Source: a virus. From it: a stretch of DNA of 64,000 nt. Location: IMG/VR virus record IMGVR_UViG_3300045988_174937, one strand, 5' to 3'. The notes below the pieces were generated by a model. The model had not been told where the DNA came from. It saw nothing but the letters and a program-made list of their open reading frames with translations, and made no database searches. The position numbers and the translations under genes are program-made. Positions 4,330 to 24,183 of the stretch are shown here, piece after piece (the first letter of the stretch is position 1; each line of letters starts with the position of its first letter).

Positions 4330-4525
4330 GGCGCGGTTCTTCCGCGTGGGGAAGAGGTATCTGTTGCCTGTAGGTACGTCGTTTGTCGTGGTAAAGATAC
4401 GCCCCGAACAGAACACAATGAACGTTCAATTCATCGGTCCTGATTGCTCCACGTCGGGCGTCGAATCGGTTAATTTAGTAAACTACAAGAAAGCGCTCCA
4501 GCGAGGAGAAATTGAAGAAATCTAA
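4313..4525 (+). CDS. Hypothetical protein
   Basis: 70-aa ORF overlapping the previous stop by 17 nt. Confidence 0.5.
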   Translation: MVKKSKARFFRVGKRYLLPVGTSFVVVKIRPEQNTMNVQFIGPDCSTSGVESVNLVNYKKALQRGEIEEI

Positions 4526-4531
4526 CTACCT

Positions 4532-9615: not shown

Positions 9616-9668
9616 GTCGCCAAAATATTTTGTAGATTGGAAAATTCGTATTACCTTTGTAGTGGAAA
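9616..9668 (+). promoter_or_regulatory. Promoter cassette copy 1 (Bacteroidota-type -33 TTTG / -7 TAnnTTTG)
   Basis: TTTG at 9629-9632 lies 19 nt upstream of TACCTTTG at 9652-9659. Palindrome CAAAATATTTTG at 9621-9632. A conserved leader runs to the ATG at 9669. Confidence 0.7.
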
Positions 9669-12794: not shown

Positions 12795-12869
12795 TCTCCA
12801 AAATATTTTGTAGATTGGAGAAAAGTTACTAATTTTGCTCTTGGAAAAGAAAACTAAACACTCAAAATT
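12795..12869 (+). promoter_or_regulatory. Promoter cassette copy 2
   Basis: TTTG at 12807-12810 lies 19 nt upstream of TAATTTTG at 12830-12837. Palindrome at 12799-12810. Leader GCTCTTGGAAAAGAA at 12837-12851. Confidence 0.7.
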
Positions 12870-14766: not shown

Positions 14767-15765
14767 ATGGAAACAAACGTAATTACCACCGTGTTCAACG
14801 CCCAGGAGGCGTTACCTATCAACGACGAAGCGCGTATCACCAAGGCCCAGATCCTGTTCCTGTACGCTGCGGCCAATGCCGCCGCTGACCGCCCGAGTAT
14901 CATCTGCGTGGACGAGGGTCCGCTGCCTTTCACTGACGTGGCTGAAGCGGCCCCGCGTTACGGCGAAATCCGTCAATGGCTGGGGACGTTCCTGGACAAC
15001 AACCTGGTATTTCGGGCGATGATGCCTATCGACGACAACGCCACGGTCGTCAGCGAAATCAAGCGTCTGTCGCACGAGTGTACCGACGCCGGGCTGTTGG
15101 AGTTTTGCGTTGACGACGACACGCTCCGCTTTACAGCGCTTGGCGTCGAGGCCATCGAAAAGTACGGCCCGGTGCTGGACGAGGAGTGGCGATTAATCGA
15201 GCGTACCGTGTTGGAGGTCGTCAACGAACGTTACGGCCACTGCGGCATAGGCGTGGAGAAAATCGCTCGCCACGTCCCCACCACCAACCCGCGTGAACTC
15301 TACGGCCAATTCGTGTTGGTGGAACAAGACCTGATGTCCGCTGTGTATCGCCGCACCGACGGCGTACTGTTAGCCAACGTGTTTGGCGTGGGTACGTTCC
15401 TGGTAGAGAAACTGATCGCTTTCAACGTACCGCTGCTGGCTACGTTGGCCGATGAGGGTTGGCTCCGTACCAATCCCGACGGCATCCAGCGAGAGTACCA
15501 CGCGCGTTTCAAGGCTCAGTCGGAGGCGTACCGCCGTGAGCACGGAATCCAAGACCCCGACGAAGAGGAACAACCCGCCGCTGCTACCCACGACAACCCC
15601 ATGGCGGCGTTGGCTGCGATGTTAGGTCGTGAACTGGGGGCCAAGGTGGGGCTGCGCCGTATCGACGTTCCTGCTGACGGTGGCGAGCCCCAGGTGACGG
15701 ACCTGGACGATAAGGTGGCCGACGCCGAAGCGGTGTTGAAAGCCGAGGACAAGCCCGTATCGTAA
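14767..15765 (+). CDS. Hypothetical protein
   Basis: 332-aa ORF with an acidic C-terminus. It is the last gene before the gene-free hub. Confidence 0.7.
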   Translation: METNVITTVFNAQEALPINDEARITKAQILFLYAAANAAADRPSIICVDEGPLPFTDVAEAAPRYGEIRQWLGTFLDNNLVFRAMMPIDDNATVVSEIKRLSHECTDAGLLEFCVDDDTLRFTALGVEAIEKYGPVLDEEWRLIERTVLEVVNERYGHCGIGVEKIARHVPTTNPRELYGQFVLVEQDLMSAVYRRTDGVLLANVFGVGTFLVEKLIAFNVPLLATLADEGWLRTNPDGIQREYHARFKAQSEAYRREHGIQDPDEEEQPAAATHDNPMAALAAMLGRELGAKVGLRRIDVPADGGEPQVTDLDDKVADAEAVLKAEDKPVS

Positions 15766-15789
15766 CGAACCGCGTTTTCTATCTTCACA

Positions 15790-15823
15790 GAGCCACCCTA
15801 AACCCATGGGGTGGCTCATTTTG
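15790..15823 (+). terminator. Rho-independent terminator
   Basis: GAGCCACCC (15790-15798) pairs with GGGTGGCTC (15809-15817), followed by ATTTTG. Confidence 0.7.
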
Positions 15824-15906
15824 TCGTTGTGTGCTGCTGATAATACGTTTTCGGTACACCTGGGTCACCTGCGAGGCGATACGCAGATGCCATGCCGAAA
15901 ATCTGG

Positions 15907-16068
15907 TTGAAGATTTTGACTCCTTTGGCGATTTGCGTAAAACTGCTGTTGGAAGATGTTGTAGAAAAACGATGTTTTGGCGTTTTATTTGTGCTGTTGG
16001 AAGATTTTCACACTCTTGGAAGATTTCCGCGTTATTTTGACGCTCTCCAAGACCTCTGTTGGCGATTT
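15907..16068. repeat. Seven interleaved iteron-like motifs (TTGGAAGATTT type and TTGGCGATTT type)
   Basis: TTG(G)AAGAT(T/G)T at 15907, 15949, 15997 and 16016. TTGGCG(A/T)TTT at 15925, 15977 and 16059. Several are preceded by CTGTTGG. Confidence 0.6.
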
Positions 16069-16170
16069 CCCCCTATGGTTCTCCCCCTTTCTTCCCCCTG
16101 ATGGTTTTTCTCCTCCCCCCACCCCTCTACTTTTCCTTTACCCCCTATAATCCCCCTTCTCCTTACCCCC
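16069..16170. repeat. Polypyrimidine block with eight C4-C6 runs (G-run cluster on the minus strand)
   Basis: About 85% pyrimidine on the + strand. C runs start at 16069, 16083, 16094, 16115, 16122, 16141, 16152 and 16166. Confidence 0.8.
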
Positions 16171-16178
16171 AATTTCCG

Positions 16179-16210
16179 GTGTAAAAGAGAAAAAACACTC
16201 TCTTTTACAC
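16179..16210. repeat. Perfect 12-bp inverted repeat with an 8-nt spacer
   Basis: GTGTAAAAGAGA (16179-16190) and TCTCTTTTACAC (16199-16210). Confidence 0.8.
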
Positions 16211-16345
16211 TTTCCAGGCCCTCACGTGCCCCCGCGCGCGTGCATGCATACATGCGAGAACGCACATGAAAACATCGTCTTTCCAGCACGCCAAAGCACT
16301 GCGTCGAACCGCCAACGTTATTGAGTTCGTAAAACCTACCACGAA

Positions 16346-16600
16346 ATGGAACAAGAAGCTAAACAACATCCCTACATCGGCCATATTGCCCGCAGTATGC
16401 AGCGTATGGCTCATGAATACGCCAAACAGATAATCACACGTCAACTCGACGTCAAGAGTATCACCGTCGGTAGCACCAACGGTTTTGAACTCACGCTGAC
16501 CGATAAGCGCCAACAGCAAACGGCCAAAGTACAACCAGGAGTCAGGCAACTTCGCCTATTTCCAGACGACGGTCAAATGGTAAAATCCGTAACACGATGA
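16346..16600 (+). CDS. Hypothetical protein
   Basis: 84-aa ORF, the first credible CDS after the hub. Confidence 0.55.
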   Translation: MEQEAKQHPYIGHIARSMQRMAHEYAKQIITRQLDVKSITVGSTNGFELTLTDKRQQQTAKVQPGVRQLRLFPDDGQMVKSVTR

Positions 16601-18306: not shown

Positions 18307-18340
18307 CCCGTAACTGGTAACGCAGTTCGCTTTCGCACGT

Positions 18341-18375
18341 CCGCCAGGGAGGTGGTTTGCCCTGGCGGATTTTTA
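18341..18375 (+). terminator. Rho-independent terminator
   Basis: CCGCCAGGG (18341-18349) pairs with CCCTGGCGG (18360-18368), followed by ATTTTTAG. Confidence 0.75.
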
Positions 18376-18667
18376 GTTACTTTCGCTACAACGTTATAGT
18401 ATCTGAAATGAGGGAACGCCGCTTTACGCCAAGCAACGAAGAGTTAGGTTTTCAGCGAGTGTAGTTTCTTTTCCGACCGCGGTGTTTCCTCTACCATACC
18501 CCAGGCTGGTGGGGTCGGAGTCAGGCCTCCAAACGGTATAAGCCCTGTCGCCAGCAAACAAATTGTCTCCAAGGCAGCAACGCAGACTTCCTCCATAGCG
18601 AGCGCCGGAGCGGAGGAGACAGACTCTACAAGGGGAAGAGTATAAGCGATACGTCGCGCCCCTTGAT
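18376..18667 (+). ncRNA. Candidate structured non-coding RNA upstream of the tRNA (unclassified)
   Basis: About 290 nt with no + strand ORF. GC-rich with repeated GGAG/CTCC blocks and long-range complements, e.g. 18472-18478/18513-18519 and 18564-18570/18615-18621. It abuts the tRNA 5' end. Confidence 0.3.
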
Positions 18668-18738
18668 TGGCCTGTGGTGTAATGGTAACACACCAGATTT
18701 TGGATCTGGCGTTGGAGGTTCGAATCCTTCCGGGCCGA
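18668..18738 (+). tRNA. tRNA-Gln (anticodon UUG)
   Basis: Manual cloverleaf of 71 nt. Acceptor TGGCCTG/CGGGCCG, U8, D stem GTGT/ACAC, anticodon stem CCAGA/TCTGG with loop TTTTGGA. T arm GGAGG-TTCGAAT-CCTTC, discriminator A, CCA not encoded. Confidence 0.85.
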
Positions 18739-18958
18739 CTAAACCCCCAATTAAAACCGCGTGTGGCAGACGTGGCCCGAAAGTCCATGGGTGAGGGGGT
18801 TTTTAAGAAATTTCGTTCGTTAACGTTGTGGCAGTTCGCCCGTGCCGGCAAAGGGAACACCAATAGGAACGGCAACCGACGAGCGCGGGGCGTGAAATAT
18901 CGCCCCGACCTTAAAGTCTTAACAGACTTCCATCAATCAAAGGTTTAATTCACCCCCG

Positions 18959-18996
18959 ACCGCCCCACAGTAGTGATACAGCGAGGCGGTTTTTTA
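18959..18996 (+). terminator. Possible terminator (short stem, long loop)
   Basis: ACCGCC (18959-18964) pairs with GGCGGT (18985-18990), followed by TTTTTT. Confidence 0.4.
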
Positions 18997-19032
18997 ATTT
19001 TACAGCGTTACTTACGAAAAACTTAAAATGAT

Positions 19033-20967: not shown

Positions 20968-22659
20968 ATGGCTATTATGATACAACCAGCCCTCCCCCAT
21001 CCTTCATTCGTTGAGCCATCGTATAACCATCGTTTGGCTTGCTTGGAACTTGTAGATGAAATAATACAAGCCATGGATGAACGCGGTCTCAACGAAATGA
21101 TGAATGGCGATGTTCGTGATGTAGATGCCGTTTTCGACGCACTTATGCAGGATACCTACCGCGTTCTATACACAGGCGATATGTCTATTGATTTTCGTCC
21201 CAGATATGAAGAGAATCTATCAGCGGTCGTTGAAGATACCCTACGATGCGCCAATTTGACGTATTTCATCACTTCGGTCATCCCCGATTTTCAACTATCG
21301 TGGCACCACCTGGAGTGGGGAGAGTTAGTACAGCAACACAAGAAATTGTGTATCAATGCTGCTCGTGACCACGGAAAGTCGTTCTATTTCTCCAACGCCT
21401 ACGCCGCGTGGCAGTTATATCGCTATACACGCCCGCGCACAAGGAGTTATTCAAAGCGACCCACGGCGGCTTCGTCTAACCGCGGTTTCTTGTTTTCGTT
21501 CTCTTTACAACAGGGAATCGACCTCATGGAGATTTTGAAGGGGACTATCGAGGAGAATGACATTCTGAAGGAGCGGCTGTTCCCTCAGTCTACGGCCAAC
21601 AGTTGGTCTGCTACCAACATCGTATGTCGTAATGGAGCGCGGTTGACGGTAAAGGGTTTTGGCTCTTCGGTGCGTGGTGCTCACCCGTACTGGATTATCG
21701 TCGATGACGGCTTGAAGGACAACGTCATCTACTCCAGTCTTCAGCGAAATAAGTCCACCGACTATTTCCACTCCGTGATTATGAACATGCTCGTACCCGG
21801 CGGCCAGATTATCGTCGTCGGTACGCCGTTCCACGCCGAGGACCTTTACGGCGACCTCAAGACCAAGAACGGTTGGTTCGTTATCGAGTATCCGGCCATC
21901 TTCCCCGACGGGCGAATCCTTTGGCCCCAGCGCTGGTCGTTCAAGGACCTGATGGATAAAAAGGAGACTCAGGGTTCAATCATCTTCTCGCGTGAGAACC
22001 TTTGCCGCCCGATTACCAACGAGTCGTCAATATTCCCGATGGAAATCCTCACGCGTTCGCTACTGCGGATGGAAAATTACACGTTGGTGGATTCACGCGA
22101 AGAATTCCCTGTTAAGTTCTCCAAGGTGGTGGTCGGGTGTGACTTCGCTATTTCAGCCAACGTCGGCGCCGACTACGCCGTATTCAGCGTGTGGGGTATC
22201 GACGAGTTGACCGACGAACGCTGGTTGTTACACCTCTACCGCGAAAAAGGTGTAAAGTTCTTCGAACAGATGAACGTCCTGCGCCGTATCAACTCCCACT
22301 TCCGGCCTGACCTTATCGTGATGGAGAATAACACATTCCAACAGATATTCGTTGAGACGGCCGACACCGAGGGGATGCCCGTTATCGGTCACACTACGGG
22401 AATTGATAAGTACGACTTGAAAACCGGGTGGCCACACCTCTCAACGCTATTCGAACGTGGCAAAATCCACATTCCAGTGGGCAACGTCTACTCTCAGCAG
22501 GTCAAGGACCTCATATTCCAAGACCTCGGTTCCGTTGCCTTTACCGAAAAGGGGCTGGAGAGCGTCGGCAGTCACGATGATATTTCGTCGTCGTTCTGGT
22601 TGGCCGACTTGGCGGCGTCGCGTATGACCACTGGATTTAAGTTCGATTTGTTAGGATAA
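20968..22659 (+). CDS. terL: Terminase large subunit
   Basis: ATPase motifs DHGKSFYFS, YWIIVDDG and VVGTPFHAEDLY. C-terminal RNase-H-like nuclease acidic residues (VVGCDFA, IVMENN, SHDDISSS). Confidence 0.9.
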   Translation: MAIMIQPALPHPSFVEPSYNHRLACLELVDEIIQAMDERGLNEMMNGDVRDVDAVFDALMQDTYRVLYTGDMSIDFRPRYEENLSAVVEDTLRCANLTYFITSVIPDFQLSWHHLEWGELVQQHKKLCINAARDHGKSFYFSNAYAAWQLYRYTRPRTRSYSKRPTAASSNRGFLFSFSLQQGIDLMEILKGTIEENDILKERLFPQSTANSWSATNIVCRNGARLTVKGFGSSVRGAHPYWIIVDDGLKDNVIYSSLQRNKSTDYFHSVIMNMLVPGGQIIVVGTPFHAEDLYGDLKTKNGWFVIEYPAIFPDGRILWPQRWSFKDLMDKKETQGSIIFSRENLCRPITNESSIFPMEILTRSLLRMENYTLVDSREEFPVKFSKVVVGCDFAISANVGADYAVFSVWGIDELTDERWLLHLYREKGVKFFEQMNVLRRINSHFRPDLIVMENNTFQQIFVETADTEGMPVIGHTTGIDKYDLKTGWPHLSTLFERGKIHIPVGNVYSQQVKDLIFQDLGSVAFTEKGLESVGSHDDISSSFWLADLAASRMTTGFKFDLLG

Positions 22660-24107: not shown

Positions 24108-24183
24108 TTCGCCAAAATATTTTGTAGATTGTAAAATTCGTATTACCTTTGCTCTTGGAAAAGAATCGTAAAACAAAATCGTT
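24108..24183 (+). promoter_or_regulatory. Promoter cassette copy 3
   Basis: TTTG at 24121-24124 lies 19 nt upstream of TACCTTTG at 24144-24151. Palindrome at 24113-24124. Leader GCTCTTGGAAAAGAA at 24151-24165. Confidence 0.7.

Follow-up and report, generated by a model that had tools for sequence, protein, structure and literature searches.

A candidate iteron-type replication origin built around a phased C-run array in a metagenomic phage genome

Background

Iteron-type replication origins, and origins that lie inside initiator genes, are textbook knowledge. In lambda, a palindrome stands beside the AT-rich tract; in SPP1, it is the organizer gene that contains the origin, and AT-rich DNA adjoins the repeats of oriL; in iteron plasmid and satellite origins, the central regions are AT-rich as well. 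Here we describe a gene-free region of a phage genome, positions 15,824 to 16,345 of a 64,000-nucleotide stretch of IMG/VR record IMGVR_UViG_3300045988_174937 (the window, meaning the whole stretch that was analysed), which is probably an origin of this architecture and in which an array of C runs takes the position of the AT-rich tract. To our knowledge, replication origins are almost unknown among the phages of gut Bacteroidota and Clostridia, most of which exist as metagenomic contigs only.

In lambdoid phages, the iterons of the origin and the central tract next to them are embedded midway along the initiator gene, so that extra iterons add residues to the protein (PMC7466680). The lambda origin is activated by transcription. 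The region studied here resembles that origin, in gene O, in having direct repeats, putatively bound by an initiator, immediately beside a strand-asymmetric central element, and in that transcription through the origin may contribute. Many other carriers of the same module also share with lambda the position mid initiator gene, in the linker between two domains, with the repeats translated, an N-terminal part that is swappable together with the iterons, and a conserved C-terminal part. The region differs in that the central element is a phased C-run array and not an AT-rich tract, in that the module of the window lies outside genes and is bracketed by convergent repeats, and in belonging to another host phylum; the two have no sequence similarity.

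With the organizers of the SPP1 oriL/G38P type, the likeness lies in the carrier genes, which fall into replisome-organizer and DnaD-like PHROGs and stand beside DnaC-like or DnaB-like genes. However, the organizer of Faecalibacterium phage FP_Brigit has no such array, and we know of no C-run/TATAAT array described for SPP1 oriL. Iteron plasmid and satellite origins (SaPI/PICI ori, RepA-type) have repeats that flank a central unwinding region, with the cognate initiator encoded adjacently, to which the repeats, the putative opening element and the candidate initiator gene described here would correspond. Some carriers, such as locus L181, look like small integrative elements in which int, the module and terS follow in that order; a sequence in common with these origins was not found.

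Results

A composite module shared by unrelated phages

Because the same module sits in or beside initiator genes, with iterons upstream, in many unrelated phages, we consider the region to be a phage replication origin, or at least a region controlling replication initiation, of iteron-type architecture, with a probability of about 0.6. The support comes from association and analogy. A first-pass annotation, made from the sequence of the window alone, had already suggested an origin here, and the comparative evidence now favours that suggestion.

The central element of the region is a C-run array at 16069-16170 of the plus strand (C 51%, T 35%, A 9%, G 5%). Its runs of four to six C start at 16069, 16083, 16094, 16115, 16122, 16141, 16152 and 16166, and its conserved core, ACCCCCTATAATCCCCC, lies at 16140-16156. 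Eight runs of at least four C thus fall within 110 nt, whereas the densest cluster of runs of at least four G elsewhere in the window holds three per 110 nt. The most pyrimidine-rich 102 nt of the window (86%) are those at 16067-16168. The array is a single-copy element in the window, strongly strand-asymmetric and helically phased, and no Watson-Crick structure was found in it on either strand (200 of 200 shuffled sequences fold at least as well). It is followed at 16173-16210 by TTTCCGGTG and a 12-bp inverted repeat with perfectly complementary arms (16179-16190 and 16199-16210) and an invariant 8-nt loop, AAARACAC; the hairpin, which is accompanied by AAAAGAGAAAAAA, is more stable than shuffled sequences when folded as single-stranded DNA (z = -4.3 and -3.8). 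A GC-rich alternating segment at 16223-16256 then comprises CACGTG (16223-16228), CCCC and a 24-nt alternating pyrimidine-purine tract (16233-16256), which is the longest of the window (the runner-up has 15 nt) and, with 8 nt of pure CG, is potentially Z-DNA-prone by its sequence, which is not conserved within the phage group. These elements and the iterons to their left, all of which the first-pass annotation had picked out, are present at their positions and extreme for the window.

A scan of IMG/VR with the 14-mer CCCCTATAATCCCC gave many chance matches, which were filtered by context, and about 50 matches that end a phased C-run array, of which TTCCCCCCTTTCTTCCCCCTCTTTCCCCTACAACCCCTATTACCCCCTATAATCCCCC is a typical example. 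A second scan, anchored on the upstream runs with the TATAAT part left free, recovered the same families, almost all with CCCCCTATAATCCCCC. Judged by flanks from which the array had been excluded, the carriers belong to at least 25 unrelated phage and prophage families, with GC contents from 34% to 62%; such family counts are lower bounds, and related sequences are not independent observations. A strict two-part pattern occurs in bacterial genomes of three species: Ruminiclostridium, Oscillibacter and Alloprevotella. The hosts of array-bearing phages span two or more phyla (Clostridia and Bacteroidota).

The motifs of the module come in a conserved order, C5, T.CAA or ACA, C4-5, 8-13 nt, and C5 TATAAT C5, and the modal run-to-run spacing is 11 nt. 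On its 3' side the array is followed first by either a purine run or a hairpin of 8-13 bp and next by GC-rich alternating sequence (for example, GCGCGCGCG and GCGTGTGCGCG), which in most other families is 7-13 nt long. Non-coding versions elsewhere carry an 8-13 bp inverted repeat 10-35 nt past the array, and unrelated repeats fill the position of this phage's iteron zone. The window has every one of these parts: C4-6 runs in a phased array that ends in CCCCCTATAATCCCCC and whose C-rich strand is also the one that codes for the adjacent genes, repeats upstream (15900-16068), the hairpin and the alternating tract. The C-tract, hairpin and alternating tract, which the first-pass annotation had listed with the iterons as four separate unusual elements, are parts of one composite conserved module, of which the window carries a stand-alone, non-coding version.

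That annotation had also singled out the propensity for G-quadruplex formation. In line with G-quadruplex- and i-motif-prone tracts, no part of the window gives a stronger G4Hunter signal than this region (-2.0), whose G runs are on the minus strand. However, it does not conform to the canonical definition (four runs of at least three, with loops of 1-7 nt): the loops measure 9, 6, 16, 1, 15, 6 and 9 nt, and even with loops of up to 12 nt there is no four-run motif. A canonical G-quadruplex (G4) was therefore rejected for the window on run and loop geometry, and one is present in only about 10 of 27 family representatives. What is conserved seems to be phasing and motif order, and not G4 geometry.

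Variants and breaks of the array were noted in passing. A high-GC subfamily (L184-L187, L237, L242 and L271) lacks TATAAT and has CCCATACCC instead, continuing with CGCGCGCGTAAGG, which is also found in relatives of the window phage (L001-L006 types) as ACGCGCGTAAGG. In an Alloprevotella metagenome-assembled genome (L182, JBHAFF010000026.1, about 4467-4531), 11 copies of AAGCAAA stand ahead of the array. Six IMG/VR contigs (L076, L086, L125, L128, L156 and L159) end in or beside the array, and in L125 a Nextera adapter is fused 20 nt upstream of the core; these contigs stop either because sequencing or assembly broke off at the C/G runs or because the DNA really ends there.

Association with replication-initiator genes

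In about 11 of the 25 or more families, the array lies inside an open reading frame (ORF) of 189-349 aa, and five of these families have replication-type PHROG matches (L108, L081, L177/L169, L139 and L158). The matches of the array-bearing ORFs are to phrog_270 (5.6e-26), to the replisome organizer phrog_13246 (2.9e-27), to phrog_1408, to the DnaD-like loader phrog_8489 (7.6e-32) and 5708, and to the O-like phrog_678. The array codes for a linker that joins the N- and C-terminal parts of these initiator-type proteins, and it is read as PYNPP or as PPIIPP, both frames being used even within one protein family. In a second class of 17 loci, the 16-mer core alone is followed by GGGGG, and the same two frames recur in initiator-like ORFs. 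One carrier, a Ruminiclostridium prophage, has the array in a DnaD-like ORF (phrog_186) that lies between the genes of a single-stranded DNA-binding protein and a DnaC-like loader, the slot that the replisome organizer occupies in FP_Brigit. The FP_Brigit organizer served as a control: its proline-rich linker is written in mixed codons and contains no array. The array is thus not a by-product of proline coding, an explanation that was rejected on this control and on the two reading frames, and it appears to be under selection at the DNA level, being kept inside initiator genes in either of two frames.

Nineteen loci of one initiator family were retrieved by similarity of the C-terminal protein domain only, which makes them an unbiased set, and none of the 19 lacks the array, the purine run or the GC tract. 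Over 67 pairs the array is 92% identical, compared with 81% for the coding domain and about 61% for the repeat zone. The upstream repeats are entirely different between phages (GTTACAGTAAC in 6-8 copies, AGTCACGGTGA in 4-7, GACGTCAA in seven, TTCAAACGGA and GTCAGACGAAT in four each, and TCTTACAGTAAGAC in five), and all are translated into repeat peptides. In two families of 55-59 kb phages, the module is non-coding and comes after the genes of an O-like initiator and a DnaB-like helicase (1.6e-63); at least 15 copies of ACGACTAT(T/C) lie in a gene-free stretch of about 1 kb past the array (+550 to +950 from the core in L135, +550 to +870 in L175), and copies occur just upstream of the array too. 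A blastn search of the L135 module against cultured phages returned unannotated faecal contigs only. Across families, then, the module appears to be tied to replication initiation.

Conservation and anatomy in the phage group

The region was compared in 26 distinct versions, including those of a distant clade whose neighbouring 193-aa protein is 42-44% identical; the first comparison set consisted of 16 sequences, the window and 15 relatives. All 26 versions are non-coding and mosaic, and they range from about 394 to 580 nt. In the window, none of the three plus-strand frames is open across the C-tract and no open stretch exceeds 61 aa, in agreement with the earlier finding of no gene here, and a protein-coding region was rejected on these grounds. 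The first-pass annotation had named a conserved coding frame in homologous phages as a reason to abandon its reading; none was found, the 16 sequences sharing no frame and differing by many indels. A known non-coding RNA was likewise rejected, as Rfam covariance models gave nothing at E <= 1 over 15700-16450.

To the left of the array, the iteron zone (15900-16068, plus strand) contains two kinds of repeat: TTG(G)AAGAT[TG]T at 15907, 15949, 15997 and 16016, and TTGGCG[AT]TTT at 15925, 15977 and 16059. With four copies of the one and three of the other within 160 nt, the zone shows the clustering of direct repeats that characterises iteron-type origins, and a Poisson estimate for at least three TTGGCG in 140 nt is 4.5e-4. 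The two kinds are not equivalent, a distinction that the first-pass annotation had not made: TTGGAAGAT is absent elsewhere in the 64 kb on both strands and almost private to the window, whereas TTGGCG is common to the whole phage group. Two inverted copies, CGCCAA at 16289 and 16310, had also been overlooked; they belong to the right-hand repeats (16285-16326, plus strand), among which the inverted pairs I3 and I7 were detected, and the second falls within the 17-mer CGCCAACGTTATTGAGT (16310-16326). TTGGCG is present in all 26 versions, with 67 copies to the left of the array and none to the right, and CGCCAA has 39 copies to the right and three to the left. The 17-mer is invariant in 16 of 16 sequences; the distant clade differs at two positions and retains [CT]CAACGTTATTGAG. 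Genome-wide, TTGGCG and CGCCAA are over-represented 4-6 times, with 66 and 91 plus-strand copies compared with about 16 expected for each.

Always kept in the group are one to three TTGGCG, a C-rich tract with ACCCCCTATAATCCCCC (replaced in one subtype by CCCCTATATCCCC), TT[CT]CGGTG with the hairpin, a purine-pyrimidine-rich segment and [CT]CAACGTTATTGAG. The C-run array is retained in the distant clade, and the alternating segment is variable in sequence and longer in relatives. The hairpin stem occurs in the subtypes AGAGA/TCTCT, AGAAT/ATTCT, GAGAC/GTCTC and AACAC/GTGTT, around an unchanged loop. In a loop-registered alignment (A4), 94% of the cells pair and nine of 14 pairs change on both sides; none of 500 shuffles matches the observed pairing, and slid alignments drop to 39-68%. 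The alignment was built with the stem in mind; since it has no internal gaps, the covariation is not an artefact of alignment. Within the region, AT-rich sequence is confined to the TATAAT island and the hairpin zone (61% AT).

The left boundary, outside the core module, is an intrinsic terminator at 15790-15823 of the plus strand (an 11-bp stem and then a T-run) that closes the upstream operon containing the gene of a 332-aa protein; it was detected here as previously annotated. Its stem sequence varies among relatives with the pairing kept, and in five relatives it is absent, its place being taken by a segment of about 80 nt with a different terminator-like hairpin. In the first 70 nt or so past the 332-aa gene, L021 differs from L019 by an inversion of the inner stem and loop in the terminator hairpin (GCCGCCCCCATCAATCAGGAGCGGC versus GCCGCTCCTGATTGATGGGGACGGC), and this inversion looks hairpin-mediated.

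The 332-aa protein as a candidate initiator

The gene for the 332-aa protein (14767-15765, plus strand) is always directly upstream of the module, and its product is restricted to this phage group. It has no match in Pfam or PHROG, and a profile search of PDB sequences gave nothing. In the AlphaFold2 model, residues 5-148 have a pLDDT of 85-95 and form helices, a beta-hairpin and a long helix. From its fold and position, this protein may be the initiator, or cognate DNA-binding protein, for the TTGGCG/CGCCAA repeats. No similarity to initiator domains was found in the flanking ORFs.

Genome context and host

All long ORFs of the window lie on the plus strand. To the left of the region is a block of small genes of unknown function; to the right is an operon leading to an HU-like protein, tRNA-Gln and a DEDDh exonuclease, and farther downstream are TerL (4.6 kb away), portal and head genes. 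Besides the winged-helix-like protein encoded upstream, the context thus includes the HU-like and exonuclease genes downstream. The replication-type genes closest to the region encode the HU-like protein (18019), the exonuclease (19033) and, at 1584, a helicase; when the ten nearest ORFs were searched against PHROG and Pfam, the HU-like protein and the exonuclease were the only ones to match, and no recognisable initiator gene was found in the window.

Neither megablast of the region nor tblastn of the flanking proteins found similar sequence in cultured phages, and the phage group is known from metagenomes only. The relatives are metagenomic contigs of 95-101 kb, many of them from human gut samples, and the major capsid protein is closest to those of Bacteroides thetaiotaomicron phages (49% identity). 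Canonical Bacteroides promoters (TTTG-N19-TAnnTTTG) occur in three near-identical plus-strand copies, at 9629-9659, 12807-12837 and 24121-24151, which read CGCCAAAATATTTTGTAGATTG...TAnnTTTG. The window genes lack Shine-Dalgarno sequences. Because of these promoters, the absence of Shine-Dalgarno sequences, the capsid match and the human-gut relatives, the host is very probably a Bacteroidota bacterium. No copy of the promoter was found in the window beyond 24.2 kb, so the late genes must use another mode of transcription.

Other features of the window were observed. Downstream of each Bacteroides-type promoter is a CTCTTGGAAAAGAA-like sequence that resembles the TTGGAAGAT repeat of the region. 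A (T)CGTAAAAC motif recurs about 8-15 nt before start codons in A-rich leaders (for example, at 1584, 16346, 20429, 24184, 48378 and 51537) and may be a phage-specific translation-initiation signal. A gene-free stretch of 730 nt (18307-19032) contains tRNA-Gln (18668-18739), the only model of Rfam 15 to reach its gathering score in the whole window, and two terminator-like hairpins; its blocks 18536-18700 and 18800-18950, with 81-93% identity to the distant clade, are better conserved than most genes and could be non-coding RNAs. TerL (20968-22659) has 563 aa in the window and 842-904 aa with a Hom_end_hint (intein) domain in the distant clade (L051, L052, L055 and L060), and NUMOD3 homing-endonuclease-like genes are inserted ahead of the DEDDh exonuclease gene in L052, L055 and L058.

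Discussion

Evidence for and against an origin

Several observations weigh against an origin. This phage has no confidently identified initiator: the Foldseek matches of the 332-aa protein all have E > 0.2 and none is significant, although winged-helix proteins make up nearly all of the top ones. The repeat zone varies between relatives and is in part missing from them, the left iteron half being absent from five of the 16 sequences, and the conservation of the core relative to the window is about equal to that of the flanking genes and no higher. The central element, at 44% AT and 51% C, is no AT-rich unwinding element, even if its position fits one. In L181, and possibly in L176/L144, the module lies just upstream of a small-terminase-like gene, and L182 is neighboured by genes for an esterase, a MazG-like protein and a THUMP methyltransferase, with no obvious phage genes. 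GC skew over the 64 kb has a local dip at 15-18 kb and no persistent sign change; the genome-scale inflection by which the first-pass annotation proposed to judge the origin is thus missing, in a test made uninformative by the fact that every gene sits on one strand, over a window of about two thirds of the genome (about 35 kb lies outside). Finally, the downstream operon must receive its transcription from within the region or through it, so that a promoter or leader role is inseparable from that of an origin.

The region might accordingly be no more than the promoter and 5' leader, or a regulatory hub, of the operon that runs from the 84-aa gene through the HU-like gene, with TATAAT as a -10-like element and the hairpin and 17-mer as RNA or operator signals. 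It does lie between a terminator and the next co-oriented operon, for which there is no canonical Bacteroides promoter; TATAAT shows almost no variation across families, in most of which genes on the C-rich strand begin 70-500 nt downstream, and the putative leader RNA folds at z = -2.9. We nevertheless regard this as unlikely. The Bacteroidota sigma-A consensus is TTTG-N19-21-TAnnTTTG, with three perfect copies elsewhere in the phage and none here; the gap to any -35-like hexamer, judged by eye, is 13 to 21 nt; the module is mid-ORF in about 11 families; a promoter class would be present several times, but the window has one copy of the element; and no Rfam family matches. A canonical Bacteroides promoter was rejected in its own right, as 15766-16345 contains no exact match and the best candidate (15820) has one mismatch and is missing in several relatives. 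Transcription from here would in any case be compatible with an origin, since transcription activates lambda ori. More doubtful still is a region with no present function in cis, left over from the inter-domain linker of a decayed initiator gene or merely promoting the exchange of modules. The closed frames here of an array that is coding elsewhere, the mosaic breakpoints exactly at the left edge of the array and the replaceable left half would all suit such a history. However, the array, the compensated hairpin with its invariant loop and the convergent repeats are kept across clades that diverge by 20-40% in neighbouring genes, neutral relics would not maintain covariation, and no residual similarity to initiator domains was detected in the flanking ORFs.

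That the region is a genome terminus or a signal for packaging (pac, cos or the edge of a terminal repeat) seems quite improbable to us, and the first-pass annotation, which had held a packaging region or regulator hub to be equally possible, was too generous on this point. TerL lies 4.6 kb downstream, and several IMG/VR contigs end at the array, one of them fused to an adapter, but breaks at clusters of C/G homopolymers are an expected artefact of sequencing and assembly, and contigs of this phage group begin at various other sites. The carriers in which the module precedes a small-terminase-like gene amount to one or two families, and most instances lie in replication and not in packaging genes. 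The least probable of the alternatives, and one to which we give hardly any weight, is a Rho-dependent terminator or insulator in which the C-tract is a rut site that backs up the intrinsic terminator. Its composition (C 51%, G 5%), the lack of any predicted structure and its position directly after the end of an operon are those of such a site. In many families, however, the array is translated inside ORFs, where Rho could not load, and the invariant TATAAT, the flanking repeats and the hairpin would be left unexplained.

Proposed mode of action

If the region is an origin, a phage initiator, for which the winged-helix-like 332-aa protein is the candidate, would bind the left TTGGCG repeats and the right inverted CGCCAA repeats. 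These bracket the central element, formed by the phased C-run array with CCCCCTATAATCCCCC, the conserved hairpin and the GC-rich alternating tract, which would stand in place of the AT-rich tract of lambda as the probable site of duplex opening and of helicase and primer loading. The pyrimidine strand, predicted to be free of structure, could serve as the helicase-loading strand, and its G-rich complement could fold and so stabilise the open state by holding the bubble open. The repeated CCCCCTA could be primase start sites giving G-rich, tightly bound primers, an idea that comes from the preferences of Firmicutes DnaG. Transcription from the upstream operon may help to activate the origin, as in lambda.

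More tentatively, and as a guess that we would not yet rely on, the array with its invariant CCCCCTATAATCCCCC might be an undescribed, portable opening-and-loading element of iteron-type phage origins that replaces the AT-rich unwinding element. Searches of the open-access literature for this module, and for G-quadruplex or iteron phage origins, returned no description of the module, and an earlier description elsewhere is possible. Relative to those papers, the new points are the conserved C-run/TATAAT module, its spread over numerous initiator families and over hosts of two or more phyla, its conservation at the DNA level in two frames, and its position where an AT tract would be.

Implications

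A short DNA signature of this kind would allow the origin, the initiator gene and its repeats to be annotated directly from sequence. The module could help in designing phage-derived replicons for gut bacteria that are genetically intractable, and would also explain the assembly breaks at the site of the array. In the carriers, selection at the DNA level would override protein coding, the same 77 nt being used in two frames within one protein family, and the modules that set initiator specificity appear to be swapped at a fixed junction. How such an origin is opened becomes a question in itself, since a C-rich, strand-asymmetric and helically phased array stands where textbooks put an AT-rich tract.

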